Of a stretch of 64,000 nt of DNA, positions 34,935 through 64,000 are shown one piece after another. This DNA comes from Eledone cirrhosa. Its lineage: Eukaryota. The DNA lies in NCBI GenBank assembly GCA_964016885.1, contig OZ024741.1:5084001-5148000 (forward strand). Reading direction: 5' to 3'. Each line of letters starts with the position of its first letter. Positions within the stretch are counted from its first letter, which is position 1. The notes under the pieces are model-generated. The model did not search any database. It saw only the letters and a program-made list of their open reading frames with translations, and was not told where the DNA came from. The position numbers were made by a program, and so were the translations under genes.

Positions 34935-34991
34935 TATATATGAAATATCTCCACAACATTCTGTATATATAAGCAATAAGTTATATAATAA

Positions 34992-35153
34992 TTGTTTCTA
35001 CTTTAGGCACAAGGCCAGCAAATACCCAGTGCATTACTGGTACTTTATTTTATCAACCCCGTAAGGATGAAAGGCAAAGTCAACCTCGGCGGGATTTGAA
35101 CTCAGACCGCAAAGGGACGTAACTATGCTGGAAAGCATGGCGTCCGACCCTCT
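34992..35153 (-). mobile_element. tRNA-derived SINE with 17-bp target-site duplication
   Basis: The minus strand carries B-box GAGTTCAAATCC followed by GCCTTTCATCCTTACGGGGTTGATAAAATAAAGTACCAG (Deu/Nin-like core). AATAAGTTATATAATAA is duplicated exactly at 34975-34991 and 35154-35170. Confidence 0.9.
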
Positions 35154-35373
35154 AATAAGTTATATAATAATACTGCGTTGTTTCTATCCAATATTTATAA
35201 ACAAAAGTTTTTAATGTAAACAGATGTTGAAAATTACAAGAGATATGTTTATTAACTAAATCTTATGACTAATAGCATTATTTTCAGGAAAACCTATTTC
35301 TAAACTCCCTGCTTACACATTATATAATACCAAATATATTCAAAATTAACCAGAACAGCTTACATTAAATACA

Positions 35374-35666
35374 CAGTGAAAACTCGGTTCACGAACTTGA
35401 TTCCTACTTGAAAGTCGTTCGTCATCCGAAACTATTTTTTTCACACGAAATGTTGGGAGATAAATACCGGACTGTGTGTGAAAGATATCACCATAGTAAC
35501 TAATTGCACAGCAAGTGACACTTTCTCGTCGATACTGCCAGCTTGTCGCCAACCGTTGTTGCCGGATTACGTGTTCGTTACTCGAGACACCATTCGTCAT
35601 CCGAGGCGTTTTATATTCGGAAAAATTGTTCGTGAACTGATTTATTCGTGACGCGAGGTTCCACTG
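35374..35666. mobile_element. pogo/Tigger-like MITE
   Basis: TIR-like ends CAGTGAAAACTCGGTTCACGAAC ... TTCGTGACGCGAGGTTCCACTG|TA, with sub-terminal GTTCGT repeats inside. Confidence 0.65.
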
Positions 35667-35670
35667 TATA

Positions 35671-35772
35671 TAATTGTTTCTACTTTTGGCAGAAGGCCAG
35701 CAATTACCCCAGTGCATTACTGGTACTTTATTTTATTGACCCCGTAAGGATAAAAGGCAAAGTTAACCTCGG
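35671..35772 (-). mobile_element. 5'-truncated SINE of the same family
   Basis: Near-identical to 34992-35090 (TTGTTTCTACT...CCCAGTGCATTACTGGTACTTTATTTTAT...AACCTCGGC). Confidence 0.85.
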
Positions 35773-36924
35773 CATACATCAATAGACGTGTGTGAACATT
35801 TCTTAAACATATTCCGATATAGTATTTAGTCAGCCCTGATTAAGAGAGGGAGAAGGGTTTAGTATGTTATGAGCAGAACCTCTAAGAGAAATGTTGCAAG
35901 GCGGTACAAGACCTCTTTGGGACTCGAAGAAGGCAAAGATTTTTCTCAAAATGGATATTGCATGGTTAATGGGCCTTCTTAGCTCTTGGGCCCAGGAACA
36001 AATTACCAGCTGGACCCCCACCTCTCATAGGCCGAGCTTATGATAATTTGGCAAACATTTACTCTGTACCAACGTATGTAAACAAATTATGTTCCACTTG
36101 GACAATATAGTAATTATAGAAAAGTGGAAATACGTAACAACATTGGGAAATGAGTAATTTAGCTGATTATGTGTCTAATTATTTATAATTATTATTTATA
36201 ATAGGAACAGCTATAGTTCATTTAGTAAAGGATTCGTAAATTTTATTATACAAAGCATATAAATAAATTTACAGTAGAAATATGTTTTAAATATATACAT
36301 AACATTACAAATGCTTAGATAATATAAATTGTTCGCGATTCTTTCAAAAGGATATATTCCTTTAATATTAAAGAAAATATAAAGGAAGAGGTGGTCAACG
36401 GAGCCAACACCAGAGCAAAAGACAGCAGCCAGGGGTACCAGGAAACCTCTCTAATGATTTAGCAAACGTCTACTAATCTCTGACTACATTGGTATTATCA
36501 ATAAACCAAGTTCCCGTTAACCAGTTGTTGGCGGTGACACTACATGTTTATTATAGTGTTTCAGTGAGACTTGGAAATGTTGGGAGGTGTGTGTACACAT
36601 ATATGCATACATACATATATGTATATATAGACAGGCGAAGTATATCGATGTAAAATGACATAGGAAAATCTGCTTCGTAGAATCAAGACGTATCTGAGGA
36701 CCTTGCGATTATCAGAGTCAGGTTCGATCATCACATCGATCGTGCCTCGAGCTGGTCGCCAGAGAAACGATTGTAATATGTCTAAGAAATTCCATTCGTC
36801 GCAACACTGATTCTCTTTTTTTCTGTGATATATATATATATATATCGACCACCCCACTCTCAAGAGAGTGAAACTAATAAACCTTTGTTCGTACTGCCTC
36901 TCTGTTTTATTCCCGTTCAATTTT

Positions 36925-36970
<46 letters not shown>

Positions 36971-37033
36971 AAAAAAGGGAAAGAATGACTTCACTTGTAG
37001 TTCTAAACAATTTTGAGCAAATATATATTAAAA

Positions 37034-37167
37034 TAGAGCAAATATATATTAAAATAACAGATTAAAGTTTAAGCAAAGAATCGCTGCTTTCACCCTTAAC
37101 GTCAAGGGTGAAAGCAGCGATTCTTTGCTTAAACTTTAATCTGTTATTTTAATATATATTTGCTCTA
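37034..37167. repeat. Near-perfect 134-bp palindrome
   Basis: TAGAGCAAATATATATT...GCTTTCACCCTT-AACGTC-AAGGGTGAAAGC...AATATATATTTGCTCTA. The arms are exactly complementary, with one mismatch near the centre. Confidence 0.95.
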
Positions 37168-37225
37168 CGGTTCTTATATATTTATCCTTATCGAGCCCTC
37201 TTTGGATTTTAGTCTTCACATTTAT

Positions 37226-37420
37226 TATGGTGGATTGGCAGTATCGGTAGAGGGTCGGACGCCATGCTTTCCAGCATAGTTACGTCCCTTTACGATCTGA
37301 GTTCAAATCCCGCCGAGGTTAACTTTGCCTTTCATCCTTACGGGGTCGATAAAATAAAGTACCAGTAATGCACTGGGTTATTGCTGGCCTTGTGCCTAAA
37401 GTAGAAACAATTATTATTAT
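37226..37420 (+). mobile_element. Full-length tRNA-derived SINE
   Basis: A-box-like TGGCAGTATCGG, B-box GAGTTCAAATCC, core GCCTTTCATCCTTACGGGGTCGATAAAATAAAGTACCAG, and end GTAGAAACA followed by an (ATT)n tail. Confidence 0.9.
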
Positions 37421-37421
37421 T

Positions 37422-37452
<31 letters not shown>

Positions 37453-38659
37453 ATAGATGAAGAATTAGAAATAGAAGCCAGGAATATACGTCATCAGTGG
37501 TCTACTAGTCATCATAGGTATTTCTTCGCATTACAGACCATATACCTCAAGCTAGAGCGATACAATAACTAAATTAAGTTATTGGGTGGAGAGAGAGAGA
37601 GAGAGGTAAACAAACACGAATGGTGAGGCAACGTAAAGAGAGGAAAAAATGAGAAAATCAAGTCAATAATTCATTTTGAACATAAGAACTTGCGAATATT
37701 GACGAGAAGGCAAGACATATCTTGGCCGTGCGAATGTGAGCGAGGAAAGAATTTCAGACGGTGTGGGACGATGTAGGAAGGGAGAGAGAGGGTGAGTAGC
37801 AGAGAGTGAGTGGGTGAAAGTGTGAGGAAGAGGCTAGCCGAGAGAGGGTGACTAGCAGAGGGGGTGAGTGAAAGTAAGAGGGAGGAGAGAGAAAGAGGAT
37901 AGCAGTAAGGGAAGAGAAAAAGACAGGTCACAGCGAAGGGGAAAGCATATATGAATGAAAAATGGCGAGCTGTGTTGTTGCAATAGGATATATATATAAT
38001 AAATGATATATATATATATATATTGTTATGCTTTGGAAGGGTCATGTTGCCAATAAAGAATAGGGGCCCGAACTCTTGCAGTTTCAACAAGTTCCAAACT
38101 GGAACTTGTTTCTTTTGGCAATGTTTTCATTAAATAAACATTTTTTAAAATTACTCTTTGGAGACTTAGTTTCTTTCATCAGAAATTTTGACTTTTATCT
38201 GCATACTGAATTCTGCTTTTTTTATATATTTTTTCCTAGTTTCTATCTGTTTGTTTGCCTTAAAAAGTATTTTAAAACGGCAAGAGCTCAACCGTCGGGT
38301 CTCGTCACTATAATATATATAAACATACATTGACGAGGCCATAGGGAACATTCGCCATAAACCCGTTTACCCATAATTATTTACTCAATGAGATACAGTC
38401 TGAACGTGCATCAAGCAAAACCTGTTTTCATCCATCCAATATATATAAACAATGAGTTATATATATATATTTCGTTGCTGAATTTGTTTAGCAAGATTCT
38501 TTATCTGAAAACGTGTGTTGAAACCGATATTGTTATACTTTGGGAGGGTCATGTTGCCAATAAGAAACACACGCACCAGTTGCTTCATTTCAATTTATTA
38601 TAAATTTCCGGTTGGTTGGTTGGTTGGTTGGTTCCACAACCGGACGGTTGTTCATATAT

Positions 38660-38704
38660 TGTCAAAGTTCTTTCGTCGCACATTCTGTGACCTCTTCAGT
38701 GACA
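38660..38704 (-). ncRNA. Minimal type-I hammerhead ribozyme-like motif (Penelope pLTR type)
   Basis: The minus strand reads UGUCA-CUGAAGA-G-GUCACAGAAUGUGCGAC-GAAA-G-AA-C-U-U-UGACA. It has both core boxes, stem I UGUCA/UGACA, a stem II hairpin GUC...GAC and a 2-bp stem III, as in PLE minimal hammerheads. Confidence 0.6.
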
Positions 38705-38964
38705 GGGGATTCTTTTCTTTGTTTTGTGCCTCTCCTTTGTTCTCTCCTACGCCATCTTGTTTAAGATGGCTGAAACAGTTCTAGTCCTGTAGAATCTCTT
38801 CTATATTAAAACTTTTATACTCTGCTATGTATTGAGTACCTTACTTACTGTGGTTACCTCCGATTCAACCCGAAATAACTTATATATATATATATATATA
38901 AACAATGAGTTTATATATATATATTTATTTAAACAATGAGTTATATATATATATATATATATAT

Positions 38965-39244
38965 ACAATATATTAATAAATGGAAACTATATTTATAAAA
39001 CCATATTTATTTTATTATATATATTTCAAGGGCGACTAAGGTACATTATGGTGCGCTTTCATCAGATAAAATACAGATTTGTTTTATAAACAAATATTGA
39101 CATACCCGGAAAAAAGACAACCTCAACGGTTGAAATTCAGTGGATAGTCAGAGTAAAGTGCACCATAATCTACCTTGGTCGCACTTGAAATATATATAAT
39201 AAATATGGTTTTATAAATATAGTTTCCATTTATTAATATATTGT
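38965..39244. repeat. Inverted repeat, ~92-bp arms with ~95-bp spacer (probable Penelope inverted pLTR remnant)
   Basis: 38965-39059 (ACAATATATTAATAAATGGAAAC...TGGTGCGCTTT) is the imperfect reverse complement of 39155-39244. CTGATGA lies on the minus strand next to the left arm, and TTGAGTGCTTTATATC follows the right arm. Confidence 0.75.
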
Positions 39245-39350
39245 GTATTTACTCCACTAGATGTTGAGTGCTTTATATCAGTTATAAAAATGTTTAAGCT
39301 TGTTGAATCCCAACAAATTAAATATAACCTCTGCATATATATAAACAATG

Positions 39351-39569
39351 CAAGGTGGTCGTGTAGGCGCCACGGAAAAAGCACCCAGCACTCACTGTAA
39401 ATGAGGTTGGTGTTAGGAAGGGCATCCAGCTGCAGAAATCAAGCCAAAATCAGTTCCTGTATGAGCAAGGCATGGTCAGCCGACCAGACACTGCCCACAA
39501 CAGGACAACCCGTCTAACCCATGCTAGCGTGGAAGAACGGACGTAAAACGGTGATGATGATGATGATGA
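39351..39569 (+). mobile_element. RTE-type LINE 3'-UTR fragment (or RTE-tailed SINE) with (GAT)n tail and TSD
   Basis: GGTGTTAGGAAGGGCATCCAG...CCCGTCTAACCCATGCTAGCGTGGAAG...(GAT)n. It is homologous to the 3' end of the RTE at 48551-48800 (-). ATATATAAACAATG occurs on both sides. Confidence 0.8.
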
Positions 39570-39702
39570 AATATATATATATATAAACAATGAGTTATAT
39601 ATATATATATATATATATAAAAATGAAAGGTATAGAAAATATTGTAGCAAAAAGCCAACAGTATTCCATAATATATAATATATCACGTATATAAACAATG
39701 AG

Positions 39703-39751
<49 letters not shown>

Positions 39752-40107
39752 CAGAAAGAGTAGTGAGGGTAAATTCCTGTGAGAAAAAAAAAAAAAAAAA
39801 AAAAAAAAAATAGAAAACTAGAAAAAAATACTAATTTCTTAGCGAACCCTAACAGGAATAAGTGGGAGAATGAGAAGAGGAGAACCCTAACTGGAGCTTT
39901 TCTATAAATTTATCAACGAAATCTCCTCTCAGATCTTCAATCTTTTCCAATCATTTATTTGTTAATAATTTATTTCCAACACCAACTTCTATCAGATTGT
40001 TTACAGTGGATTTCAGTTGCCCCATAAATTAACTCAGGTGAGAGTCAGATCAGGGTCACCTAAGAATCCCATAAAACTTAAGTTACATTATATTATCAGG
40101 TTTTATC

Positions 40108-40271
40108 GGTAGAGGGTCGGAAGCCATGCTTTCCAGCATAGTTACGTCCCTTTACGATCTGAGTTCAAATCCTGCCGAGGTTGACTTTGCCTTTCATCCT
40201 TACGGGGTCGATAAAATAAAGTACCAGTAATGCACTGGGTAATTGCTGGCCTTGTGCCTAAAGTAGAAACA
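40108..40271 (+). mobile_element. SINE with 21-bp target-site duplication
   Basis: Same family as 37226-37420. ATTATATTATCAGGTTTTATC is duplicated exactly at 40087-40107 and 40272-40292. Confidence 0.92.
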
Positions 40272-40551
40272 ATTATATTATCAGGTTTTATCTTTCACTT
40301 TACATCACTTTTCTTTTATTGTCTGTCATTGGATAATATATCTACACATCACTTCATCCGTCTTCAACTAGAAACTTTAAGTACTCTTGTCCCGCTAGAA
40401 ATAGCAGCTAATTTCCTCACAAATCGTCTCTTTTGTTGTTAGAAAGTGAGAAACATTGGATGATGTCTTCCTTAAATTACGATGTCTGTAAAATATTGGT
40501 TTGGGTCACATCTGAAACACTTGACGGGGTTTAATATAACAACTCTCCTAT

Positions 40552-40646
40552 ATCTCACCTTCGACATACTCGCAATCGACTTTTTTCCGAACCCCCAATT
40601 CCCTTTTCGGAAAAAAAGTCGATTGCGAGTATATCGGAGGTGAGAT
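40552..40646. repeat. Hairpin / MITE-like inverted repeat with ~40-bp arms
   Basis: ATCTCACCTTCGACATACTCGCAATCGACTTTTTTCCGAA ... TTCGGAAAAAAAGTCGATTGCGAGTATATCGGAGGTGAGAT. Confidence 0.85.
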
Positions 40647-41179
40647 TCGTTGAAAACTCACGAAAAAAGAAAAAATTTAAAATAATTTCTTAGCGAACCC
40701 CAGCAGGTGATTTTTTTTATAAATCTATCCTTTCATTATATATCTAAAGTGGAATTGTCCCAAGATGAAATGAAACGAAATTTAAAATAAATAAGATGAA
40801 ACATTACTGACCATTTGATGGAGCAAGAGGCGTGTGGAGGGTAAGTGGCGTAAATATAGAGAAGACCGATGGTAAATAATACTGTGATTCCAACAACAGA
40901 CAGACAGAAAAGACGACCACATAGAGATATACATCGTCTTTTCATATGGAAACTTCTTTTACTTCTAACACCAGTATTTAGTTTCTTGTATCCAGTCATA
41001 TTGATAACTTCTGTAATAATTATTTCTACTTTTTAACAATAGCTGCTATGTAAACAACTAAACAAAGAGAAATGACACAACTTTTACTTCGTCAAGAAAA
41101 GATAACTTTACAAACTTCCGGTTCTAACAACTAGCGACCTCTCTCGGTTGGGTTCCTCACTGCTTTAATGTGTATATAT

Positions 41180-41372
41180 GGTGTAGGATTGGTAGTATCG
41201 ATAGAGGGTCGGACGCCATGCTTTGCCGCAAAGAGTTACGGCCCTTTATGGTCTGAGTTCAAATCCCGCCGAGGTTAACTTTACCTTTCATACTTACGGG
41301 TCGATAAAATAAAGTACCAGTAATGTACTGGGTTATTGCTGGCCTTGTGCCAAAAAGTAGAAACAATTATTG
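41180..41372 (+). mobile_element. Full-length tRNA-derived SINE
   Basis: Same A-box, B-box and core as the other copies, ending GTAGAAACAATTATT. Confidence 0.88.
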
Positions 41373-41419
41373 TAAATGATTATTGGTGGTCATACATATT
41401 TACTTTTACTTACTTAAAT

Positions 41420-46374: not shown

Positions 46375-47860
46375 ACCAGTGATACAATGCCCCCATTACA
46401 CTCTGTAAAGTGGTAATGTTGGTGCCACAATAAAATACACCCAGTTCCCTCTGTAAAGTGGTAGTGGTGGTGTCATGATATAATACACCCAGTACACTCT
46501 GTAAAGTGGTAATGTTGGTGCCACAATAAAATACACCCAGTTCCCTCTGTAAAGTGGTAGTGTTGGTGTCATGATATAATACACCCAGTTCCCTCTGTAA
46601 AGTGGTAGTGGTGGTGTCATGATATAATACACCCAGTTCCCTCTGTAAAGTGGTAGTGGTGGTGTCATGATATAATACACCCAGTACACTCTGTAAAGTG
46701 GTAGTGGTGGTGTCATGATAAAATATACCCAGTTCCCTCTGTAAAGTGGTAGTGTTGGTGTCATAATATAATACACCCAGTACACTCTGTAAAGTGGTAG
46801 TGGTGGTGTCATGATAAAATACACCCAGTACACTCTGTAAAGTGGTAGTGTTGTTGTCATGATACAATGCCCCCATTACACTCTGTAAAGTGGTAGTGTT
46901 GGTGTCATGATATAATACACCCAGTATGCTTTGTAACGTGGTAGTGGTGGTGTCATGATATAATACACCCAGTACACTCTGTAAAGTGGTAGTGTTGGTG
47001 TCATGATATAATACACCCAGTTCCCTCTGTAAAGTGGTAGTGGTGGTGTCATGATATAATACACCCAGTTCCCTCTGTAAAGTGGTAGTGGTGGTGTCAT
47101 GATATAATACACCCGGTACACTCTGTAAAGTGGTAGTGTTGGTGTCATGATATAATACACCCAGTTCCCTCTGTAAAGTGGTAGTGGTGGTGTCATGATA
47201 TAATACACCCAGTACACTCTGTAAAGTGGTAGTGGTGGTGTCATGATAAAATACACCCAGTACACTCTGTAAAGTGGTAGTGTTGTTGTCATGATACAAT
47301 GCCCCCATTACACTCTGTAAAGTGGTAGTGTTGGTGTCATGATATAATACACCCAGTATGCTTTGTAACGTGGTAGTGTTGGTGTCATGATATAATACAC
47401 CCAGTTCCCTCTGTAAAGTGGTAGTGGTGGTGTCATGATATAATACACCCAGTTCCCTCTGTAAAGTGGTAGTGGTGGTGTCATGATATAATACACCCGG
47501 TACACTCTGTAAAGTGGTAGTGTTGGTGTCATGATATAATACACCCAGTTCCCTCTGTAAAGTGGTAGTGGTGGTGTCATGATATAATACACCCAGTACA
47601 CTCTGTAAAGTGGTAGTGGTGGTGTCATGATAAAATACACCCAGTACACTCTGTAAAGTGGTAGTGTTGTTGTCATGATACAATGCCCCCATTACACTCT
47701 GTAAAGTGGTAGTGTTGGTGTCATGATATAATACACCCAGTACACTCTGTAAAGTGGTAGTGTTGGTGTCATGATATAATACACCCAGTATGCTTTGTAA
47801 CGTGGTAGTGGTGGTGACATGATATAATACACCTAGTACACTCTGTAAGCTGGTGGTGTG
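46375..47860. repeat. 48-bp minisatellite (~31 units), stop-free in one minus frame
   Basis: Unit ATACACCCAGTACACTCTGTAAAGTGGTAGTGGTGGTGTCATGATATA. It produces ORF 46268-47998 with 16-aa repeats (LGVLYHDTTTTTLQSV). Confidence 0.97.
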
Positions 47861-48251: not shown

Positions 48252-48538
48252 TAGATGTCCCTTTGTAGGGTCTCCAGATGTCCTTTTGTAGGGTCTCCAG
48301 ATGTCCTTTTGTAGGGTCACCAGATGTCCTTCTGTAGGGTCACCAGATGTCCTTCTGTAGGGTCACCAGATCTCCTTTTGTAGAGTCACCAGATGTCCTT
48401 CTGTAGGGTCACCAGATATCCTTCTGTAGAGTCACCAGATGTCCTTCTGTAGGGTCACCAGATGTCCTTCTGTAGGGTTACCAGATGCCCTTCTGTAGGG
48501 TCACCAGATGTCCCTTTGTCTCTGGACATCTGGAGACA
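48252..48538. repeat. 23-bp minisatellite (~12 units) ending in an inverted partial unit
   Basis: Unit GTAGGGTCACCAGATGTCCTTCT. GGACATCTGGAGAC at ~48525-48538 is the reverse complement of the GTCTCCAGATGTCC found in the first units. Confidence 0.93.
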
Positions 48539-49413: not shown

Positions 49414-49546
49414 TAGTGGTATCAGCTCATCAGTAGACAGAATATAAAATATACAATAAAGACTAATTATATATATGAATGGAAGTGCCCCAGCATGGGC
49501 TCAGACTGTCGTGAGGAGCACCTAGCAAAGTATTATATGTATAAAA

Positions 49547-49735
49547 ATGGTGGTACCATCAGACACCATGCTTTGCGGCATAGAGTTATGGCCCTTTACA
49601 TGTTCACTTCAAAACTTGCCGAGGTTAATTTTGCCTTTCATCCTTACGGGGTCGATAGAATAAATACCAGTAATGTACTGGGTTCGATTTAATCGACTTT
49701 CCCCTCCCCCAAAATTGTTGGCCTTGTGCCTATAT
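49547..49735 (+). mobile_element. Diverged SINE copy
   Basis: GCCGAGGTTAATTTTGCCTTTCATCCTTACGGGGTCGATAG...GGCCTTGTGCC. Confidence 0.8.
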
Positions 49736-50941: not shown

Positions 50942-51204
50942 CACGTCCAAGAGTAACCAATATTAAAGAGAGAGATGGAGATAGGAGAGGAGAGATTGGT
51001 GAATTAGTTAGAAGCCAAAGCGTAAAGGCATGTGCTCAATGTGCAATATGCAGTAGAAAGCAGCTAGGTGGCTGGGTTCATGCAGAGGTTAGGTGCGCAG
51101 AGCTGGAAATATTCATTAGTTAAGCAAAACAAGGCCACAAATTTCACAAGGAAGACATTATTAAAAGATTGTCAACATATTTTAGTTTGATGTAAGGAGT
51201 GTAG

Positions 51205-51279
<75 letters not shown>
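51205..51279. repeat. (AAT)~25 microsatellite
   Basis: Perfect trinucleotide run immediately left of the retroelement array. Confidence 0.98.
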
Positions 51280-51964
51280 TATTGTTATAAGGCTCAAATA
51301 TTCAAATATTCAACTTTGTATTGTACATTGTATATTCAAAAAAGAAAATGGCTATAAATGGAAGAAGAAGAACCCCCCTCCTCTGTCTACACTATATAGA
51401 ATAGCCAAACAACACCAATCTCACCAACACCAGAAACTAGATACACCACCTACCCCATCACCTCTCTGTGTACACTAAACACAACAGCCAGATAACGGCC
51501 ACTGCCATCATTACTACCACTATCCCATCACCGCCGCCACCACTCCTCCTCCTTCATTGCTACCACCGCTACAACACCATCACTACAGTAATACGATCAC
51601 ATCACCACCACCACTGCCTCAGTATCGACATCACCACCACCACTGTCTCAGTATCGCTGCCACCACATTATAGAATTCCTACTAAAAAAGAGGAAGGCAT
51701 CAAAATATATAGATAGACTCAAAAGAAAAAAACAAACATTAAAACCAAAGCAGCACAGCAACAACATCAAAAAAAAAAAGAGAAAAACAAACAGAGAAAA
51801 ACAAAAACAAAAAAAACGTAAAGAAAATAAGAATGAAGAGAGAAACAAGCGGACGGACAGAGAAGAGAGGGGAAAAACTAAGTCAGACATTCGAACACTA
51901 CATTACAATGAAACTTATGCTTATTCATTTTTGGGGTTTTTTCTGCCTGTTTGTTTGTTTGTTT

Positions 51965-54900
51965 ATTTGTGTTCGCCTACAGCGTGGTGATAATGCCACA
52001 CAAGAGCCAAGTGGAGCGGCGCAACCACCGGAGACGGTGAATCCACAGATGATTATGTAACCATACATTCGCCAATCCTCGATAAGAGTGTTTAAATATC
52101 GAACCTAAACAGTTCGAATAACGGTGAAATGGAGACTAGAACGTCATGTGACAGACTCTCACCCAACAGGTGCTCCCTGGCTCAGCAGCAGGAACCTGGC
52201 TGTCAACCAAATACTGCTGGTGTCGGAGGAAGAAGAAGAAGGAAAGGGACCAGAACCAACTGGACGAAAGAATTGAATAGAACTGTTATGCAATGTTACC
52301 TGAAAAGTAACCCCAAGGAGAGGGGCTATAGGAGACGGATGCATAACATCTGGAACGAGATTGGTCTATTTAAATTAGATGAACAAAAATTGGCCGGGCA
52401 GGCTCGGGTAATAAGAACTAATAGGTGGATAAGCGAGCTGGAACTGGAGGAACTGAGCAGAGAGATTAGCTTGGAGATGGAGGGTGGAGTATGCCAGGCA
52501 AACGAGCCAGTGGGAAATGAAGGTGAAGAGGTCGAGAGAACGGAGGAACCACCCGAAGCAGACAATGATCTGAATACTGAGATAAATAATACCTGGAACA
52601 GAGATACGGCCACTGAGGAGATGAATGCTGACGGGCTAGGACAAGATTCGGTTGACATACTAAATTTAGTGGTAGATGAATTGAACAATGATAGTGGGAG
52701 ACCTATGAACCTAAGATTTGTAGACAGGAAAAAGTTAAAAGAAACAACAGCTAAGGTAAACAAAGTCATCCCATACCTTGAGGCGAGGAGCCTTCACCAG
52801 TGCAACAATATCCTCAAAGCAACAGCAAATACGGTGAGGAAACTACTTGGTATAAAAGCGAGAGGAAACAACAGACAAGAAAGAGCAGAGCCTTGGTGGA
52901 AGAAACGACTGAGTGGTCAAATCAGGGAAATGAGAAATGACATTGGAAAGCTTGAGTCACTACTGAATGGGACACTAAAAAACATAGGCACTAAAAATAG
53001 ACTGGAAATAAAGTACAAAACTAGGAGGAAAAAGCTAAATATTATCATAGAGGAACTGAAGCAACGCATTGGAGCAAAGAGTGCAAAAATCAGGCGATAC
53101 GAGAACAGAGTCAGTCAGTATAGACAGAACCGCATGTTCGACAACAACCAGAAGATGCTGTTTGGACAGCTTGAGGGGAAAGAAAGAGGCAACGACTTGA
53201 TCCCTGAGGCGGAACAAACTAAAACATTCTGGAGAGGAATATGGGAGCAGGATGTTAGACATAATGACCAGGCAGGGTGGATTGAGACAGTACAGAGGGA
53301 GATCGGTGAGCAGGCACACCAACAAACTGATTTGAGTATCACAGTTGAAACTCTTAAGGGGCAGGCCAAAAAGCTAACCAACTGGAAATCACCAGGCCCA
53401 GATGGTGTGCAGGGGTATTGGATTAAAAATCCCTCCACCCGAAACTGACAACCATGTTCAATGACTGCTTGATGTCAGGTGAGGTACCAGAGTGGTTGAC
53501 AAAAGGTACCACAGTTCTGATAATGAAAGACCGAATCAAGGGTAATGATGTTACCAACTATAGACCTATCACATGTCTGTCCGTAATGTGGAAACTGTTG
53601 ACGAGCATTGTGTCTGAGGAAATCTACCATCACCTCCACACAAACAACTTGCTACCGGACGAACAGAAAGGATGCCGAAAGAAGTCACGTGGTACAAAGG
53701 ACCAGTTACTTATTGATAAGATGGTAATGGGGAATTGCAGGAGGAGACACACTGATCTTGCCATGGGATGGATAGACTACAGAAAGGCATTTGACATGGT
53801 GCCTCATTCTTGGATCACCAAAAGCCTGGAGATCTTCAAGGTGGCAGATAACATCAGACAGTTGTTGGGCAAGAGTATGAGGTCCTGGGAAACAGAGTTG
53901 ACATCAACTGGAGAATCCTTGGGAAGCGTGAAGATCAAGAGAGGTATCTTCCAGGGAGATAGCCTGTCCCCTCTGTTGTTTGTCCTTGCCCTGATGCCCC
54001 TGACCAGTATACTGCGAAAAATGAGAGCAGGATACAGGTTGGGAAAGGGAGGGCTTACCATCAATCACCTCCTCTTCATGGACGATCTTAAGCTCTTCGG
54101 GAAGAGTGAGAAGGAGTTGGATGTGCTTGTTGACACTGTCCGTATTTTCAGCAATGATATATGTATGCAGTTTGGTATTAGTAAGTGTGGAGTCATTGTG
54201 ATGAGGAGGGGTAGGTTGAGCAGAAGTAACGGAATCCAGATACCAACAGGTGAGATGATAAAGGAAATTGACTCTGAGGAAGGATACAAGTATTTGGGCG
54301 TTCTGGAGGCTGATGGCATAAAGAACAAAAAAATGAAGGAATTGTTAAGAACTGAATACATTCGGAGAGTAAGGAGCGTATTGAAGTCACATCTGAACAG
54401 CAGAAATGCCATAAGCGCAGTAAATTCCCGAGCTGTGTCTATTATAAGGTACAGTGCGGGAATTCTGAGATGGAATGTTGCTGAACAAAAAGAAATGGAT
54501 AGGAAGACTAGGAAGCTATTGACTATCTACAACATGTTCCACAAAAGGAGTGATGTCGATAGACTCTACCTAAGGAGATCTGAGGGTGGAAGAGGTCTTA
54601 TCAGCATAGAGGACTGTGTTCAGATGGAGAAAAACAACCTACACAAATACGTGACTGATAGTAAGGAGCCAATGCTCAGAACTGTACTGAAGGAGGGGAC
54701 AATAGGCCAGGGGATGTCCAAGGAGGAAATAACATCAAGGAGAAAGAGCAGCCTTCAGGAAAAATCCCTTCATAGTACCTTCTTTGAGAAAACTGAATTT
54801 AGAGATCCACAGACATGGAACTGGTTAAGAAGAGGAGACCTTAAAAAGGCTACAGAAGGAATGTTAATGGCTGCGCAGGAGCAGGCCCTCAAAAAGAAGT

Positions 54901-55592
54901 GGTTGAAACACCATATTTACAAGGAGGAGGCTAGCCCACTGTGCAGGATCTGAGGAGAGAGAGAGAGAGGAGACTGTGGCTCACATTGTATCCGAGTGTA
55001 AACACCTAGCCCAGACCCACTATAAGGGCTGGAGACATGATGTGATGGGCAGGGTGATCCACTGGCACCTGTGCAAAGTAAACAATTTACCACATTCTGA
55101 GAAATGGTATGATCATAAGCCAGAGGCGGTGATGGAGAACGATCAGGTGAAGGTGCTGTGGGATTTTAGGATACAGACGGACAAGAAACTGGAACACAAT
55201 AGACCTGACCTGGTGGTTGTGGACAAAGAAAAAAGATCGTGTCTGATTGTGGATGTGGCCTGCCCATTCGACACGAGAGTGCAAGAGAAGGAGAGGGAGA
55301 AAATTAACCGATACCAGGACTTAAAGTGGGTGGTAAAAAGGATTTGGAACTGCCATGAAGTCAAAGTGATCCCGATTGTCATAGGCGCACTGGGGACTAT
55401 TTCCAAAAGTTTCCAGGGATGGTTAAAGAAAATCGGCCCCTTCACGCTTTTTGGAACGCTTCAAAAGGCATGCTTGCTGGGAACAGCAAGAACCCTCCGA
55501 TACGTCCTGAATATCTGAGGCTGCAGGTAGTGGCTTGATATTCATTCCAACGGACTTTCCAGTTAACTAACATCAATGACTGAGATTCAAGG
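51965..55592 (+). mobile_element. Near full-length R4/Dong-clade non-LTR retrotransposon (copy 1), inactivated
   Basis: One ORF broken into 52129-53448, 53454-54953 and 54976-55518, with a ~75-bp 3' UTR followed by (AAT)11. The 5' boundary is approximate. Confidence 0.9.
52129..55518 (+). pseudogene. R4/Dong-type polyprotein: N-terminal domain, reverse transcriptase, CCHC knuckle and restriction-like endonuclease
   Basis: N-terminal motifs are WTKELN..VM.CY..S..GYRRRMH.IW and PWWKKRL. RT motifs are WKSPGPDG, YRPITCL, QKG, WIDYRKAFD, RGIFQGDSLSPLLF, FMDD and YKYLG. The C-terminus has CRIC..HIVSEC, RHD and RPD..D..K. There is a frameshift near 53445 and TGT>TGA plus a GA expansion at 54951-54970. 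Confidence 0.9.
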
Positions 55593-55625
55593 AATAATAA
55601 CAATAATAATAATAATAATAATAAT

Positions 55626-58600
55626 GATTTCTTTATTAACCACAAGGGTTTACATAAAGTAGACATTAAGGACAGTGCAGGACAATACAGGACGGTGAAA
55701 ATGGGCATTTATGCGTGTAAAAAACAAAAACAGAGGATGTAACAAAAAATAACAATGAAAAATTCCCCAATAGGGGGGAGACTTCGGAGAGACATTTGTG
55801 GAGAAAGCCCAGTAAAAGGCCACAATGACCCTGACCACCAAGGCAAGTGCCCCCTCCCAGTTTTCCACCTTTAATTTACAGATATATACTCAGAGTAGGC
55901 CCATTCACTCGGGCCATTCTTGCTTCTCTCACCCATCTTTCAACAAAATGCTGGGAAGAGAGCACTTCCCTCTCTACTCTGATTTTCCTTTTCAAATGAA
56001 ATTTGAAAAAATCAATCAGAGTATCACCGAAGAGGTAAGTGCTCGTCTTCAGCCCTTTCAAACGTGTCCACCATACTATATCTTTCGCCATGGCCACCAG
56101 ACAGATAAAAACTGCCTGCCCTTCCCGGCTAAAGGAGGAGGGCGGGGCAATCCTCACGATGGACTCAGATGATAGCCGGATCCGTCCTAAACGCGACAGC
56201 AGGTGTTCGACATAAACCCACAAGTCAGCAATTTTCGGACACTGGACGAGTGCGTGCAGGACGGTTTCGTCGCCCTGCGCGCATCTCGGACATGCCCGGC
56301 TGACGGCACCTCCATGCCTGTAGAGTTTATCCCGAACTGGCAAGGCTCCTCGGTAGCACTGCCAGGCCAGAGATTTCTGGAAGTTGTCCATAGGCCCTGG
56401 CCCGAAAGTTCTTCCGAAGAGATTGGCGAGTTGATTTTCGTCGACGCCTAGAGTTTCCCCAAGTACGTCGTCGCTCTTCCCCTCCACTAATCCTCTATAG
56501 AACGCCGAGGTGGAGTTTCCACCGATCACATTGCCCGATTGGTCGAGGGCTGTGAGCGCCTGAAGACATTCCAGTCTCCAGGCGCTCCCTCTCGGTCTTC
56601 GCTTGACCCAGGACTGCAGCTCCGTCAAGGAAACGAGCTGGGGAAATACGTGTCTAGCAAACGGCGACCACACCTGATCACCGTCGAGGAAGAGGTGGAG
56701 ATGTCGTAGCCTGAGCGCGTGCCTGCGCATCATCAGCCACGGCATGCCCAGCCCTCCACGTAGCGGGTGTTGACAACAGATGGACCGCCTGACCATCGGA
56801 GCGCGTCCCTTCCACAAAAAGCGAAAGAGAAAACGCTCCAGCGCAGTCAGGCGAGGCTTAGGACAAGGTACGACGGTCAGGCGGTAGCAGATGACAGACG
56901 CGTTGTACGCGTTAGCCACCTCCGCTCGACCTTTCAGGGATAGCTTCCTCTCCGCCCATTTCTGGGTGAGAGAAGCCACCCTGCTCGTCACCTCGTCCCA
57001 GTTTTTGTCCGTCTGGAGGTCTGGACCGAACCAGACACCTAGCAATTTAACCGGTCCGTCCGTCCAGCGTCCGACGACGCTGTTGTACGGCATGGATCTG
57101 CCTCTTCAGGTGCCGAGCTGCAGGCCCACTGACTTTCCCTGGTTGATCATTGCTCCTGTCACCGCTTCGTATTCTCTTAGTGTAGTGCCGATCGCCTCGA
57201 TGTGTTTGGCGTTCGACACCACTACGGTGACATCGTCCGCATATGCTGACACGGATCTTCCGCATCCTCGTTCGCGCAGGACGCCCCTCAACGTCTCCAG
57301 TTTGTGCAGTAATGGTTCGAGAGTCAATACGTACAAGAGGGACGAGAGGGGACATCCTTGGCGGACCGAGCGCATGATGTTGAACGGTTCCGACAGGTGA
57401 CCGTTCACTCTCACCACAGAGCAGATGTCGCTGTGCATGACAGCGATCCAGCCTCTGAAGACGGGCCCAAAGCCAGCCGCCCTCAGGACTGCCGCTAGGT
57501 AACGATGGTCGACACTATCGAAAGCTTTCGACTGATCTAAATTGATCAAGAACCCACCCGTGCCAGGTTCCCTAGCTACACTCTCTACGATGTATCGCAT
57601 GAGGTGGAGGTTGTCGTGGATGGATCTGTCTGCGCCTCTCCCACCAGACCACCAACGACAAGCGCCAACCTCTTTGCTAGCACCTTGGCCAAAATCTTGA
57701 ACTCTGTGTTTAGCAGAGTTATGGGCCGGAAATTATTTATGTTATCCCCCTTGTTCGGATCCTTTCTCAGCAGTGCCACCGCTCCTCGGCTCACAGAACT
57801 GGGAATTCTCCCGTTCTGTTGCCAGTTGCAGTAGACGTCCGCTAAGAGGCCTCCGAACAAGTCTGGCATCTGTACGTAAAGTTCATAGGGCAGACCATCC
57901 AAACCAGGCGATTTACCCCTTGTGCAGCCAGTCATTGCCTCCCTTACTTCAGCGGCTGTTATCGTCTTTTCGCAACACTTCGCCTCAGTGGCCGAGAGCC
58001 GCGGCAGTCCGTCGAGGTAGACACCAAAGTCCATCCTTCGACCCGGCCCACCGCTGCCCCCGAACAGCTGAGCGAAGTGTCGCTGAAAAGCTTCACACAT
58101 TTGCTCGGGATCGAGTAGCATGCGCCCGTCGTGGTCCACCAAAGACCGGTTCGTGGCTTTGTTGCCATGACGCGCCTCCGCCACTCGGGCCCATTGAACG
58201 GCTTTCGTCCCCTCGTGTCTGAGAGCACGCACCATTGTTCTGACAACGCAACCTTCGTGCTTTGCTTTGAAGAATTGGTCAAGGGCCAATTTCGCCGCAA
58301 GCACGTCGGTCGCAATGCCTTTGCTAAGCGCCTCGTCTAATTTTCTAACTATTTCTCCCTCTGCTCTATTTTTCTCTATTGCTAAAGCCTTACTAAACCT
58401 AATGGATTCTATTCTAATCGCTCTTTTCAGAGCAAACCCCCACTTGTTGTTGACGATGGCCCCCGTCAACGCCCGCTTAACTAGTTCGCTAATCCGGTCT
58501 CTGTAGGCCTTGCGCGCTGGTAAGGACGCGTTTAGCTTCCAGTAGCCGGGTCCTCGTCTATGAAGCCTATCTAAGTCAAGCACACAGATCACGAATTTGT

Positions 58601-60106
58601 GGTCCGTGTAGCTGACTATCTTGAATTGTGGACAGCCTATGCTAGACCTATCTATTTCCCTACAAAATACTCTATCTAGATATGATCTGGATGAGCCTAT
58701 GCGATTTGTCCAAAGCCACATTGGCACATTCGGGAAATCCAATCGGTACCTGTCAGAAAGTTCAAAACGCCTGAGCAGGTTGGTGAGGCTCTTGCACCCT
58801 CCACCCCCATCCGCTAATCCCACACAGTCCCAGCGTGCATCTAAGATCCCGTTCCAGTCGCCCACTAACACTAAAGAGCGGGACGTTCCAAGAAAGGTCT
58901 CCAGACGCCGGAAGAAATCAGGCCGCCCTGCTCCTGTCGGGGCATAGACGGCCACTAGCCTGAAAGCTTGCCCGTCTCCGCTGGTCACGTCCAGCACCAC
59001 CAGCTTACCCTCTGGGTCCAGGAAGATGGCCCGTATGGCGAGATCCAAACCGCTCCGAAAAAGCACAGCAACTCCTCCCCCCGATCCAGGACGGCTGGGA
59101 GATGCGTACACATCGTAGCCGCCGAAGATCGGTGCGAAGGCCCGTGCTTCGGAGATTCTGGTCTCGCTGATGGCCACTACATCTATGTTTAGTGACCTGA
59201 GGTCGTTGAGCAGGTGACCCTGCTTCCATGACGACTCCAAGCCACGCGCATTTATGCTGCCTATTCTGAGTGAAGTCATGTTTAAAATAGAGTGGAAAAG
59301 ATGGGAAAGACCACTTACCGTACTTTTCGTAGAGGAGGGATGGTTTTTACATCCCTTTTCACTTGATCGTCTGTTGAAGGGACCGTTGAATCGTCCCTTC
59401 GGCTGGTCGTCGGCTCTTCTATGAGTATGTCTGAATATACTCTTCGATTGATAGTTCCTCCTAGGTCCCTGAAATCACCAACTGCGTTGGGAATTTCGTT
59501 TTAATGTTTGTGTATTGTTTCTGTGCTATTTTTAGCAGTCTTATGTTAGTTGGCATTTTGATTGGTGCTGGTATTATGTAGTCGTGTTGTGAAATGTCTG
59601 TGTGTTCAATTATGTAAGTCATTAGTTTCTTGTTGTGTGTATTTATTGCCGTGCATTTGTTTTTCTGGGGGTGGGGTGTGGTTCTGCTATTTTCTTGTCG
59701 TTTTTGCTGGGTGTGTGTGTTTTGTTGTTATGTTTGCGATGTTGGTGCTTGTTGTGGTGGTGTTGAAGGTGTTGTTGGCGGTGGAGTTGTCGCCGGTGGT
59801 GATGGTGGTGCTAGTGTGGGTGGTGATGGTGTTGGTGGTGTTTCTGCTGTGAGTCTCTTTGCAGTAGACCTTACCCTTTTCTCATTTCTTTCCTCCCTTT
59901 TCAAAGGCGACGATGCGCTGCTTCTGCGATTGTGCCTTCTTACGACCTTTTGCCATCCCTCTCCCACCTCACACTCCATGTCTGATTCTGTGAGGTCGGG
60001 GAGGGGTACCAGCTCCACTCTTTCACTTGTTGTTGTTGGTGATGTTTGCACTGGAGTCTGCCAGCTCCACTCTTTCACTTGTTGTTGTTGTTGGTGATGT
60101 TTGCAC
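55626..60106 (-). mobile_element. Tx1/L1-clade non-LTR retrotransposon (copy A), 5'-truncated within ORF1
   Basis: ORF1 remnant (about 59300-60106; Pro/Thr/Gln-rich, GWQKVVRR), ORF2 in three pieces, and a 3' UTR ending CCCTTGTGGTTAATAAAGAAATC directly into (ATT)n. Confidence 0.88.
55876..59279 (-). pseudogene. Tx1/L1 ORF2: APE endonuclease, reverse transcriptase and C-terminal zinc-binding domain
   Basis: APE motifs are SINARGL, ISET, VAVYAP, GDWN, SYLDR and YTDHK. RT motifs are GYWKLN, KSPGLDG, FRPITLLN, LDQSKAFD, VRQGCPLS and AYADD. The C-terminus has GGLG.P and CPRC..ETVLHALVQC. Frameshifts or deletions occur near 57630 and 57100 (ORFs 57585-59279, 57106-57600, 55876-57093). Confidence 0.9.
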
Positions 60107-60883
60107 CAGACATGGAACTGGTTGAAAAGAGGAGACCTTAAAAAGGCTACAGAAGGAATGTTAATGGCTGCGCAGGAGCAGGCCCTCAAAACGAAGTGGG
60201 TGAAACACCATATTTACAAGGCGGAGGCTAGCCCACTGTGCAGGATCTGTGGAGAGAGAGAGGAGACTGTGGCTCACATTGTATCCGAGTGTAAACACCT
60301 AGTCCAGACTCACTATAAGGGCTGGAGACATGATGTGATGGGCAGGGTTATCCACTGGCACCTATGCAAAGTAAACAATTTACCACATTCTAAGAAGTGG
60401 TATGAGCATAAGCCAGAGTCGGTGATAGAAAACGATCAGGTGAAGGTGCTGTGGGATTTTAGGATACAGACGGACAAGAAACTGGAACACAATAGACCTG
60501 ACCTGGTGGTTGTGGACAAAGAAAAAAGATCGTGTCTGATTGTGGATGTGGCCTGCCCATTCGACACGAGAGTGCAAGAGAAGGAGAGGGAGAAAATTAA
60601 CCGATACCAGGACTTAAAGTGGGAGGTAAAAAGGATTTGGAACTGCCATGAAGTCAAAGTGATTCCGATTGTCATAGGCGCACTAGGGACTATCTCAAAA
60701 AGTTTCCAGGGATGGTTAAAGAAAATTGGCCCCTTCACGCTTTTTGGAACGCTTCAAAAGGCATGCTTGTTGGGAACAGCAAGAACCCTCCGATACGTCC
60801 TGAATATCTGAGGCTGCAGGTAGTGGCTTGATATTCATTTCAACAAACTTTCCAGTTAACTAACATCAATGAGAGACTCAAAG
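60107..60883 (+). mobile_element. R4/Dong copy 2, heavily 5'-truncated (knuckle and RLE only)
   Basis: It starts CAGACATGGAACTGG (equivalent to copy 1 ~54810), is open to the stop at 60811, and has the same 3' UTR followed by (AAT)-like triplets at 60884-60916. Confidence 0.92.
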
Positions 60884-60914
60884 AGTAATAACAACAATAA
60901 TAATAATAATAATA

Positions 60915-62725
60915 ATGGGATGGATAGACTACAAACAGGCATTTGACATGGTGCCTCATTCTTGGATCACCAAAAGCCTGGAGATCTTCAACGTGGCAGA
61001 TAACATCAGACAGTTGTTGGGAAAAAGTATGAAGTCCTGGGAAACAGAGTTAACATTAGCTGGAGAATCCTTGGGAAGCGTGAAGATCAAGAGAGGTATC
61101 TTCCAGGGAGATAGTCTGTCCCCTCTGTTGTTTGTCCTTGCCCTGATGCCCCTGACCAGTATACTGCGAAAAATGAGAGCAGGATACAGGTTGGGAAAGA
61201 GAGGGCTTACCATCAATCACCTCTTTTTCATGGACGATCTTAAGCTCTTCGGGAAGAGTGAGAAGGAGTTGGATGTGCTTGTTGACACTGTCCGTATTTT
61301 CAGCAATGATATATGTATGCAATTTGGTATTAGTAAGTGTGGAGTCATTGCGATGAAGAGGGGTAAGTTGAGCAGAAGTAACGGAATCCAGGTACCAACG
61401 GGTGAGATGATAAAGGAAATTGACTCTGAAGAAGGATACAAGTATTTGGGTGTTCTGGAGGCTGATGACATCAAGAACAAAAAAATGAGAACTGAATACA
61501 TTCGGAGAGTAAGGAGCGTATTAAAGTCACATCTGAACAGTAGGAATGCCATAAGTGCAGTAAATTCCCGAGCTGTGTCTATTATTAGGTACAATGCGGG
61601 AATTCTGAGATGGAATGTTGCTGAACAAAAAGAAATGGATAGGAAGACTAGGAAGCTATTGACTATCTACAACATGTTCCACAAGAGGAGTGATGTCAAT
61701 AGACTCTACTTAAGGAGATCTGAAGGTGGAAGAGGTCTTATTAGCATAGAGGACTGTGTTCAGATGGAGAAAAACAACCTACACAAATACATGACTGATA
61801 GTAAGGAGCCAATGCTCAGAACTGTACTGAAGTAGAGGACAATAGACCAGGGGATGTCCAAGGAGGAAATAACATCAAGGAGAAAGAGCAGCCTTCAGGA
61901 AAAATCCCTTCATAGTACCTTCTTTGAGAAAACTGAATTCAGAGATCCACAGACATGGAACTGGTTGAAAAGAGGAGACCTTAAAAAGGCTACAGAAGGA
62001 ATGTTAATGGCTGCGCAGGAGCAGGCCCTCAAAACGAAGTGGTTGAAACACCATATTTACAAGGAGGAGACTAGCCCACTGTGCAGGATCTGTGGAGAGA
62101 GAGAGGAGACTGTGGCTCACATTGTATCCGAGTGTAAACACCTAGCCCAGACTCACTATAAGGGCTGGAGACATGATGTGATGGGCAGGGTGATCCACTG
62201 GCACCTATGCAAAGTAAACAATTTACCACATTCTGAGAAGTGGTATGAGCATAAGCCAGAGTCGGTGATAGAAAACGATCAGGCGAAGGTGCTGTGGGAT
62301 TTTAGGATACAGACGGACAAGAAACTGGAACACAATAGACCTGACCTGGTGGTTGTGGACAAAGAAAAAAGATCGTGTCTGATTGTGGATGTGGCCTGCC
62401 CATTCGACACGAGAGTGCAAGAGAAGGAGAGGGAGAAATTTAACCGATACCAGGACTTAAAGTGGGAGGTAAAAAGGATTTGGAACTGCCATGAAGTCAA
62501 AGTGGTCCCGATTGTCATAGGCGCACTAGGTACTATCTCAAAAAGCTTCCAGGGATGGTCAAAGAAAATTGGCCCCTTCACGCTTTTTGGAACGCTTCAA
62601 AAGGCATGCTTGTTGGGAACAGCAAGAACCCTCCGATACGTCCTGAATATCTGAGGCTGCAGGTAGTGGCTTGATATTCATTTCAACAAACTTTCCAGTT
62701 AACTAACATCAATGACAGACTCAAA

Positions 62726-62726
<1 letters not shown>
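60915..62726 (+). mobile_element. R4/Dong copy 3, 5'-truncated in the RT
   Basis: It starts ATGGGATGGATAGAC (equivalent to copy 1 ~53763) directly after the (AAT)n. It has a 12-bp deletion near 61490 and a premature TAG at 61833. ORFs are 60915-61835 and 61854-62654, with an (AAT)10 tail at 62727-62756. Confidence 0.92.
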
Positions 62727-62756
<30 letters not shown>

Positions 62757-62758
<2 letters not shown>

Positions 62759-64000
62759 TTTCTTTATTAACCACAAGGGTTTACATAAAGTAGACATTAA
62801 GGACAGTGCAGGACAATACAGGACGAGGCAAATGGGCATTTATGCGTGTAAAAAACAAAAACAGAGGATGTAACAAAAAATAACAATGAAAAATTCCCCA
62901 ATAGGGGGGAGACTTCGGAGGGACATTTGTGGAGAAAGCCCAGTAAAAGGCCACAATGACCCTGACCACCAAGGCAAGTGCCCTCTCCCAGTTTTCCACC
63001 TTTAATTTACAGATATATACTCAGAGTAGGCCCATTCACTCGGGCCATTCTTGCTTCTCTCACCCATCTTTCAACAAAATGCTGGGAAGAGAGCACTTCC
63101 CTCTCTACTCTGATTTTCCTTTTCAAATGAAATTTGAAAAAATCAATCAGAGCATCACCGAAGAGGTAAGTGCTCGTCTTCAGCCCTTTCAAACGTGTCC
63201 ACCATACTATCTCTTTCGCCATGGCCACCAGACAGATAAAAACTGCCTGCCCTTCCCGGCTAAAGGAGGAGGGCGGGGCAATCCTCACGATGGACTCAGA
63301 TGATAGCCGGATCCGTCCTAAACGCGACAGCAGGTGTTCGACATAAACCCACAAGTCAGCAATTTTCGGACACTGGACGAATGCGTGCAGGACGGTTTCG
63401 TCGCCCTGCGCGCATCTCGGACAAGCCCGGCTGACGGCACCTCCATGCCTGTAGAGTTTATCCCGAACTGACAAGGCTCCTCGGTAGCACTGCCAGGCCA
63501 GAGATTTCTGGAAGTTGTCCATAGGCCCTGGCCCGAAAGTTCTTCCGAAGAGATTGGCTAGTTGATTTTCGTCGACGCCTAGAGTTTCCCCAAGTACGTC
63601 GTCGCTCTTCCCCTCCACTAATCCTCTATAGAACGCCGAGGTGGAGTTTCCACCGATCACATTGCCCGATTGGTCGAGGGCTGTGAGCGCCTGAAGACAT
63701 TCCAGTCTCCAGGCGCTCCCTCTCGGTCTTCGCTTGACCCAGGACTGCAGCTCCGTCAAGGAAACGAGCTGGGGAAATACGTGTCTAGCAAACGGCGACC
63801 ACACCTGATCACCGTCGAGGAAGAGGTGGAGATGTCGTAGCCTGAGCGCGTGCCTGCGCATCATCAGCCACGGCATGCCCAGCCCTCCACGTAGCGGGTG
63901 TTGACAACAGATGGACCGCCTGACCATCGGAGCGCGTCCCTTCCACAAAAAGCGAAAGAGCAAACGCTCCAGCGCAGTCAGGCGAGGCTTAGGACAAGGT
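62757..64000 (-). mobile_element. Tx1/L1 copy B, 3' part (continues beyond the window)
   Basis: About 99% identical by eye to 55626-56870, with the same 3' terminus ...AATAAAGAAATC|(ATT)n. ORF 63007-63963 encodes the C-terminal domain. Confidence 0.92.

Follow-up and report, generated by a model that had tools for sequence, protein, structure and literature searches.

The stretch of DNA considered here (the window) comprises 64,000 nucleotides of the octopod Eledone cirrhosa (assembly GCA_964016885.1, contig OZ024741.1, positions 5,084,001 to 5,148,000), and it raises the question of how two different families of long interspersed nuclear elements (LINEs) came to be stacked in opposite orientation on AAT repeats. 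The stack is 17.6 kb long, extends beyond the end of the window, and contains three copies of a Dong-like LINE with a restriction-like endonuclease (RLE) and two copies of an L1/Tx1-like LINE with an apurinic endonuclease (APE). A reading of the sequence alone (the original prediction) had proposed that this was a self-extending mixed array, in which each family leaves or regenerates a target for the other. Having compared the elements with other copies from the 3.0 Gb assembly, we consider that the stack very probably arose by serial insertion of the oppositely oriented APE and RLE LINEs into a single AAT microsatellite, and that the families have a target in common without being coupled.

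The target of the Tx1-like family was read from the flanks of its copies across the genome. For the 3' end, 30 loci were fetched of 40 listed, out of 1,116 candidates, two of them being the window's own copies (Tx1A and Tx1B). The element was followed by ATT in all 30 loci, by ATTA in 29 and by poly(A) in none. At the 5' end, ATT runs were present upstream in 30/30 fetched loci, one being Tx1B, and the 39 other full-length copies, each viewed in its surrounding 10 kb, all had at least six ATT triplets within 30 nt upstream. The frequency of (ATT)5 ahead of a random position is 1.1e-4. On the 3' side, at least five ATT triplets lay downstream in 36 of the 37 full-length copies with a 3' end found; near some full-length 5' ends (e.g. 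L150 and L160) the 3' end belongs to a related family. The ends were thus neither polyadenylated nor randomly flanked, and no full-length copy lacked ATT on its 5' side. Together with the Dong flanks described below, these data bear out the proposal that the Tx1-like family targets (ATT)n on the strand opposite to that of Dong, and they support genome-wide targeting of ATT on the sense strand by the APE family. The original prediction had also correctly recorded that both Tx1 copies of the window end at the same base (GAAATC, directly followed by ATT). As evidence of targeting this is uninformative, because 30/30 copies end there wherever they are located and because Tx1A and Tx1B, which have rare alleles in common, are not independent.

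Truncated Tx1 copies gave a different picture. They were defined as 40 3'-anchored partial alignments less 18 with internal deletions, leaving 22, and the interrupted copy L157 was dropped for the comparison of tracts. Only 7 of the resulting 21 had at least five ATT triplets upstream, as against 39/39 full-length copies (p=7e-9), and ATT runs on the 3' side were likewise rarer (13/21 versus 36/37; p=7e-4). The (ATT)n target of the original prediction holds strictly for full-length copies, whereas truncated ones accept a bare ATTA motif: 21 of the 22 truncated targets begin with ATTA, the background frequency of which is 0.7%. Target duplications of at least 6 nt were found in 16 of the 22 and of at least 10 nt in 13, compared with 6.3 when the pairing was shuffled. 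Duplications of 12-22 nt start with ATTA, some of them outside microsatellites, including duplications of unique sequence at L013, L002, L258 and L008. Since, in several copies outside microsatellites, the duplicated target directly abuts the last base of the element, Tx1 adds no tail of its own. It targets the short motif ATTA(T), and confinement to true microsatellites is seen in full-length copies only. This difference suggests that the motif recognised is short, and that it is the joining of full-length copies that needs a real repeat.

At L028, L120, L124, L128 and L170, the repeat next to the Tx1 or Dong copy is (CTT)n/(AAG)n rather than (ATT)n/(AAT)n, which suggests a tolerance for the repeat used by the known Tx1 family Koshi; the Tx1 copy at L028, in ATT and then (CTT)n, has such a Koshi-like context. 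At L002 and L070 the flank is the same repeated sequence, occupied by Tx1 in one of the two loci and, on the opposite strand, by Dong in the other. A metagenome scan for relatives with flanks confirmed none.

The Dong-like family had an equally uniform 3' flank, with at least three AAT units next to the element in 48/48 cases. Repeats in AAT phase also preceded the 5' ends of 16/21 full-length and 24/34 truncated copies, the latter set still including possible internal deletions. The 3' search returned seven matches with common words skipped, and this figure is not a copy count. At L136, L137, L148, L149 and L005, Tx1 abuts, tail-to-tail, a second family of the Dong type, which likewise ends in AAT and whose C-terminal part is about 42% identical.

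Since AAT follows Dong and ATT follows Tx1, the two families have opposite polarity on one repeat. LINEs integrate by target-primed reverse transcription, an established mechanism. If it operates here, the APE enzyme would cut after TAAT on the AAT strand, and the RLE enzyme would cut the ATT strand, such that the APE LINE (ATT on its sense side) and the RLE LINE (AAT on its sense side) probably nick opposite strands. AAT remains on both sides of each insertion and would be reusable by either family. A full-length Tx1 copy would need a real (ATT)n run for its 5' junction, probably through pairing of the repeat at the 5' end of the RNA.

To gauge how often such stacks occur, we used a baseline of 60 random 10-kb stretches from eight large contigs, containing 52 tracts of at least four ATT units. 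Mixed stacks were present in 2 of the 60 stretches (L192 and L218), and the Dong family, the Tx1 family and the Tx1 relatives made up 1.5%, 1.3% and 3.6% of the sample, respectively. In this genome such arrays are thus common, and the one described here is a large example. Mixed stacks do recur, as the original prediction would have it, but the notion of a two-family system does not stand, since related Tx1 families, the second Dong family and a short interspersed nuclear element (SINE) use the same tracts. The 3' ends of Tx1 copies are also frequently located next to the head of a SINE or of another Tx1 copy. The Dong-like and Tx1-like families have a common target without being detectably paired. 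Related Tx1 families, at least two in number and with 70-80% DNA identity, have similar 3' ends (L132, L134, L141, L145, L146 and L162), and together with the Tx1 family of the array they form head-to-tail chains on ATT tracts.

The entire stack is lodged in an AAT tract belonging to one arm of a palindromic repeat with many copies, MITE-like (that is, resembling a miniature inverted-repeat transposable element) and about 0.9 kb long. The left arm of this host repeat (50945-51204, plus strand) is followed by (AAT)24-25 (51205-51279, plus), the left remnant of the target. Next comes Dong1 (51280-55592, plus), a near-full-length RLE-type LINE that falls short at its 5' end by only about 160 bp and comprises a 5' untranslated region (UTR) and one open reading frame (ORF) in three frameshifted pieces (52096-53448, 53427-54953 and 54907-55518, plus), which encode a reverse transcriptase (RT), a CCHC finger and a PD..D..K nuclease. 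The stretch of about 0.7 kb after the first tract, unassigned in the original prediction, is present, but is the 5' UTR of Dong1; a separate element is ruled out, as the same UTR lies ahead of the Dong ORF in 30/30 loci, being shorter in two truncated copies. An AAT tract (55593-55625, plus) separates the tail of Dong1 from that of Tx1A (55626-60106, minus), an APE-type LINE that lacks its first 1.5 kb or so and retains the 3' part of ORF1 followed by ORF2 (APE-RT-zinc finger) in three pieces. Tx1A is joined head-to-head, without intervening AAT, to Dong2 (60107-60885, plus), the 3' 0.78 kb of an RLE-type LINE. A further AAT tract (60886-60916, plus) overlaps by 2 nt the 5' junction of Dong3 (60915-62726, plus), a 5'-truncated copy of 1.8 kb from the same subfamily as Dong2. 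Finally, (AAT)10 (62727-62756, plus) lies between the tails of Dong3 and Tx1B. The 3' part of Tx1B fills the window from 62757 to 64000 (minus); in the neighbouring DNA it runs on to extended position 68771, giving a full length of 6,015 bp, with (AAT)7 after it. The remainder of the host repeat occupies extended positions ~68793-69390, with the inverted arm at 69263-69390. The order and orientation of the elements are those originally described.

Among 2,132 candidates for the host repeat arm, the 40 matches scored were 97-100% identical to it. In copies elsewhere the AAT tract is empty or occupied by a SINE; such SINEs were seen in the AAT tract of this arm at L174, L183, L185 and L191. The palindromic repeat is itself located in TA runs.

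Could the two families nevertheless be coupled, with Tx1 preferring Dong tails, or with both priming on one break from opposite strands to give an AAT-less fusion? A second AAT-less head-to-head fusion of Tx1 and Dong, with different breakpoints, exists at L047, and a Dong copy abuts the 5' tract of 11/39 full-length Tx1 copies as against 4/52 random tracts (p=0.011, unmatched for length). However, this head-to-head effect fades once tract lengths are matched, with p=0.07 at five or more units and 10/30 versus 2/15 random tracts (p=0.28) at seven or more. Tail-to-tail adjacency, which the original prediction had proposed to compare with random tracts, was not enriched at all: a Dong tail lay beside 11/63 Tx1 3' tracts versus 5/52 random tracts (p=0.28), and beside 7/44 versus 5/15 when only long tracts were considered (p=0.26). 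Specific pairing is therefore not supported. Nor do the junctions call for joint priming. A fusion from which both 3' ends are missing is present at L129, and many full-length Tx1 copies carry internal deletions; given these and the L047 fusion, we prefer a plain deletion, either later or linked to integration, as the probable origin of the Tx1A/Dong2 junction, and regard coupling as quite unlikely. It is hardly credible that ATT is instead the element's own tail or head and that insertion is otherwise random. The run 5' of full-length copies could have been copied from RNA, and 14/21 truncated copies are without a long upstream run, but at unique sites (L013, L258 and L002) the bases after GAAATC are those of the duplicated target, with ATTA upstream too and no extra repeats. 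This idea is further contradicted by the low background of ATTA and by the long tracts on both sides of full-length copies. An artefact of assembly might also be suspected, because the components are high-copy repeats and no read among the runs examined spans the array. Nevertheless, all five copies have private alleles, Tx1A and Tx1B differing at private sites even within their homogenised tract; the stack is enclosed, in the correct order, by the two arms of the host repeat; and similar stacks are found on other contigs. Taken together, these features make a misassembly highly improbable.

A further alternative concerns the local history only and would leave the genome-wide targeting unaffected: one Tx1 copy with its tract was duplicated in tandem, the Dong copies arrived later, and one Tx1 was partly overwritten by outside donors. 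Tx1A and Tx1B are mutually nearest (1.5%, versus medians of 2.2-2.7%), they have 22 rare alleles in common, while neither shares more than two with any other copy, and the 6.4 kb block at 53763-60106 matches 60915-67246 at 96.9%. The 22 alleles are not spread evenly, however, but fall in two tracts separated by a gap of 1,742 bp (p=0.0005 versus uniform placement), inside which both Tx1 copies have private alleles of their own, at most two of them present in any donor. Furthermore, the Dong halves come from different subfamilies, Dong1 differing from Dong2 and Dong3 at subfamily-level sites with no rare alleles in common. A simple block duplication of Dong plus Tx1 was accordingly rejected, since the divergence of Dong1 and Dong3 (3.8%) is also out of step with that of Tx1A and Tx1B (1.0-1.5%). 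Local gene conversion between neighbouring Tx1 insertions, which would have partly homogenised Tx1A and Tx1B, fits best; duplication followed by overwriting is possible, if unlikely. We also considered, and rejected, a common origin with a look-alike locus, L131 (C28). Its Tx1 shares no rare allele with Tx1B and one with Tx1A; it inserted independently, into a different copy of the host repeat.

Several points weigh against serial insertion into a common target as the full account of the stack. The strand cut by each enzyme is a deduction only, and in long tracts a target duplication is indistinguishable from pre-existing repeat. Six of the 22 truncated Tx1 copies are without a target duplication. 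The rare alleles common to Tx1A and Tx1B mean that these two were not clean independent events. Head-to-head Dong copies were enriched before length matching, the baseline was small (52 tracts, 15 of them long), and a modest coupling of Dong and Tx1 is possible. Each search gave more than 1,000 candidates, of which the 30-40 with the highest scores supplied the loci, a choice that favours young copies. Finally, the four runs in which no read spans the array consisted of short reads or collapsed contigs.

The SINE that occupies the same tracts bears the signature of Tx1. Its tails continue AATTAT in 95/139 cases, and near-complete copies have duplications of at least 10 nt in 24/41 cases, versus 8.3 with shuffled pairing, mostly 15-22 nt in length. 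All 18 duplications outside long pure tracts start with ATTA, some of these sites still being ATT-rich. The last 20 nt of the SINE match the Tx1 end in register at 14/20 positions, a short match that 56 of 5,000 shuffles equalled; against the two related Tx1 families, 9 and 272 of 5,000 shuffles did as well. Dong, as a control, scored 9 versus 17-24 for the Tx1 families, and its polarity is opposite to that of the SINE and Tx1. Read by eye against the A/B box consensus, the SINE has tRNA-like A and B boxes; an Rfam scan of one SINE locus gave only sub-threshold matches. Given the ATTA duplication signature and the short resemblance at the 3' end, mobilisation of the SINE by the Tx1 machinery is likely. 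A rival partner is a family, which we take to be CR1-like from its C-terminal motif, that also ends in ATT. Upstream of the array, the window contains several more members of this SINE family (positions 34964-41374 and 49540-49720).

The names given to the two families rest on domain architecture and target rather than on a tree. The plus-strand element encodes, in a single ORF, an RT followed by a CCHC finger and a restriction-like PD..D..K nuclease, without an APE, and its closest solved structures are R2 proteins. An intact relative, P0193, matches RVT_1 in Pfam and, weakly, a restriction-fold family. R4/Dong elements are not known to have the N-terminal zinc finger present in R2 or NeSL, and none was seen by eye or in Pfam in the N-terminal 450-aa piece, the start codon of which is provisional. 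The repeats of the TAA/AAT type at its 3' and 5' ends are also those expected of R4/Dong. The 120 homologues listed for the Dong-like protein are unnamed, one being labelled 'hypothetical protein'. Scanning for an HDV-like (hepatitis delta virus-like) ribozyme at the Dong 5' end gave no Rfam match in four loci and no nested folding above shuffles, in tests that are weak for divergent pseudoknots. ORF2 of the minus-strand element matches Exo_endo_phos, RVT_1 and zf-RVT in Pfam (N-terminal APE, RT and C-terminal zinc finger), and among solved structures is closest to human L1 ORF2 (E=2e-50, versus 1e-20 for R2). Its separate ORF1, of 705 aa, matched no Pfam ORF1 family above threshold but carries a CX2CX4HX4C motif, a CCHC knuckle of the kind useful for separating Tx1 from vertebrate L1. 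The matches listed for ORF2 include no named Tx1 reference, and the only informative name among the close ones is a hypothetical protein of Argonauta, 74% identical. The copy at L142 has intact ORF1 and ORF2, with the APE catalytic residues present. Insertion is target-specific, with target duplications and without poly(A), as in the Tx1 group. The clade names Tx1 and R4/Dong thus fit what the sequences encode and where they insert.

Other repeats surround the stack. The first half of the window (1-34213) is occupied by a 73-bp satellite (~470 copies, 88% matches). Two minisatellites are also present, one of 48 bp in 30.6 copies (46380-47848), which gives an open frame of 579 aa on the minus strand, and one of 23 bp (48253-48513). 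Beyond the window (extended positions 69400-73154; L031:7400-10000 and L032), a 61-bp unit repeated in tandem over 3.4 kb directly continues the C-terminus of a CR1-like ORF2. Since the unit encodes the last residues of that ORF2, this satellite looks LINE-derived.

How does this arrangement compare with known systems? SART and TRAS are two R1-clade APE families inserted in opposite orientation on telomeric TTAGG. The Eledone stacks resemble them in having two opposed families on one simple repeat, but combine APE and RLE families on dispersed microsatellites that several further families use. Convergence of an APE and an RLE lineage on one class of target is seen in Keno (Tx1, APE) and Utopia (RLE), both specific for U2 snRNA (PMC4494074, PMC4640811); there the target is a gene, whereas in Eledone it is a microsatellite that each insertion splits and yet leaves usable. 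Dong of Bombyx, Anopheles and Biomphalaria targets TAA repeats (PMC3812793), and Dong has been placed in the R4 lineage, with a 5' ribozyme in Bombyx (PMC3774820). In its single ORF with RT, CCHC finger and PD..D..K nuclease, and in its AAT/TAA on both sides, the Eledone family showed nothing distinctive; the ribozyme was not detected in it by Rfam or simple folding, which are weak tests. In octopus, Dong-R4 and L1-Tx1 are abundant (PMC13282606, PMC8967140) and are listed as active LINE groups (PMC13282606, Table 1); the word 'target' is absent from the main text of the former paper. Accounts of octopus SINEs (PMC4824008, PMC3747384) name no partner LINE in the parts covered. Crocodilian SINEU was inferred to be mobilised by Tx1 from a target in common with Tx1-Mar (PMC4494074). 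Its heads derive from snRNA and its target is Mariner, whereas the Eledone SINE has tRNA-like boxes, an ATTA target and a resemblance to the Tx1 3' end.

Within the literature covered, to which Repbase, Kojima & Fujiwara 2004 and Fig. 3 and the supplements of PMC4494074 are external, we found neither an ATT/AAT-specific Tx1 family nor a Tx1 partner for octopus SINEs. We suggest, tentatively, that the Eledone elements may represent an undescribed ATTA/(ATT)n-specific Tx1 lineage that has spread in octopods (it and its relatives account for about 5% of the DNA sampled), that serves as partner of a very abundant tRNA-type SINE, that with Dong on the other strand makes AAT tracts into self-renewing landing pads, and whose full-length insertion would proceed through 5' repeat pairing. 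The Tx1-like family adds ATT to the targets of microsatellite-specific APE retrotransposons and is a candidate LINE partner for a SINE that is abundant in octopods, while a common, self-renewing target explains local pile-ups of LINEs and SINEs. The intact L142 copy makes the specificity of the APE directly testable against L1 and Koshi-type enzymes. The surprise is limited, in that microsatellite-specific Tx1, TAA-specific Dong and the convergence of APE and RLE on one target have each been described before, and the genome contains many arrays like this one. The nearest relatives in behaviour are the microsatellite families of Tx1, namely Kibi on (TC)n, Koshi on (TTC)n and crocodilian families on (TTCC)n/(TTTC)n (PMC4494074, PMC3812793), which are likewise of the APE type, target microsatellites and insert in head-to-tail tandem; the Eledone family differs from them in targeting ATT/ATTA, in its mollusc host and in truncated copies that accept bare ATTA. 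The Tx1-like family works as Koshi and Kibi do, with a new repeat as its target, and its Dong-like neighbour is an ordinary one.

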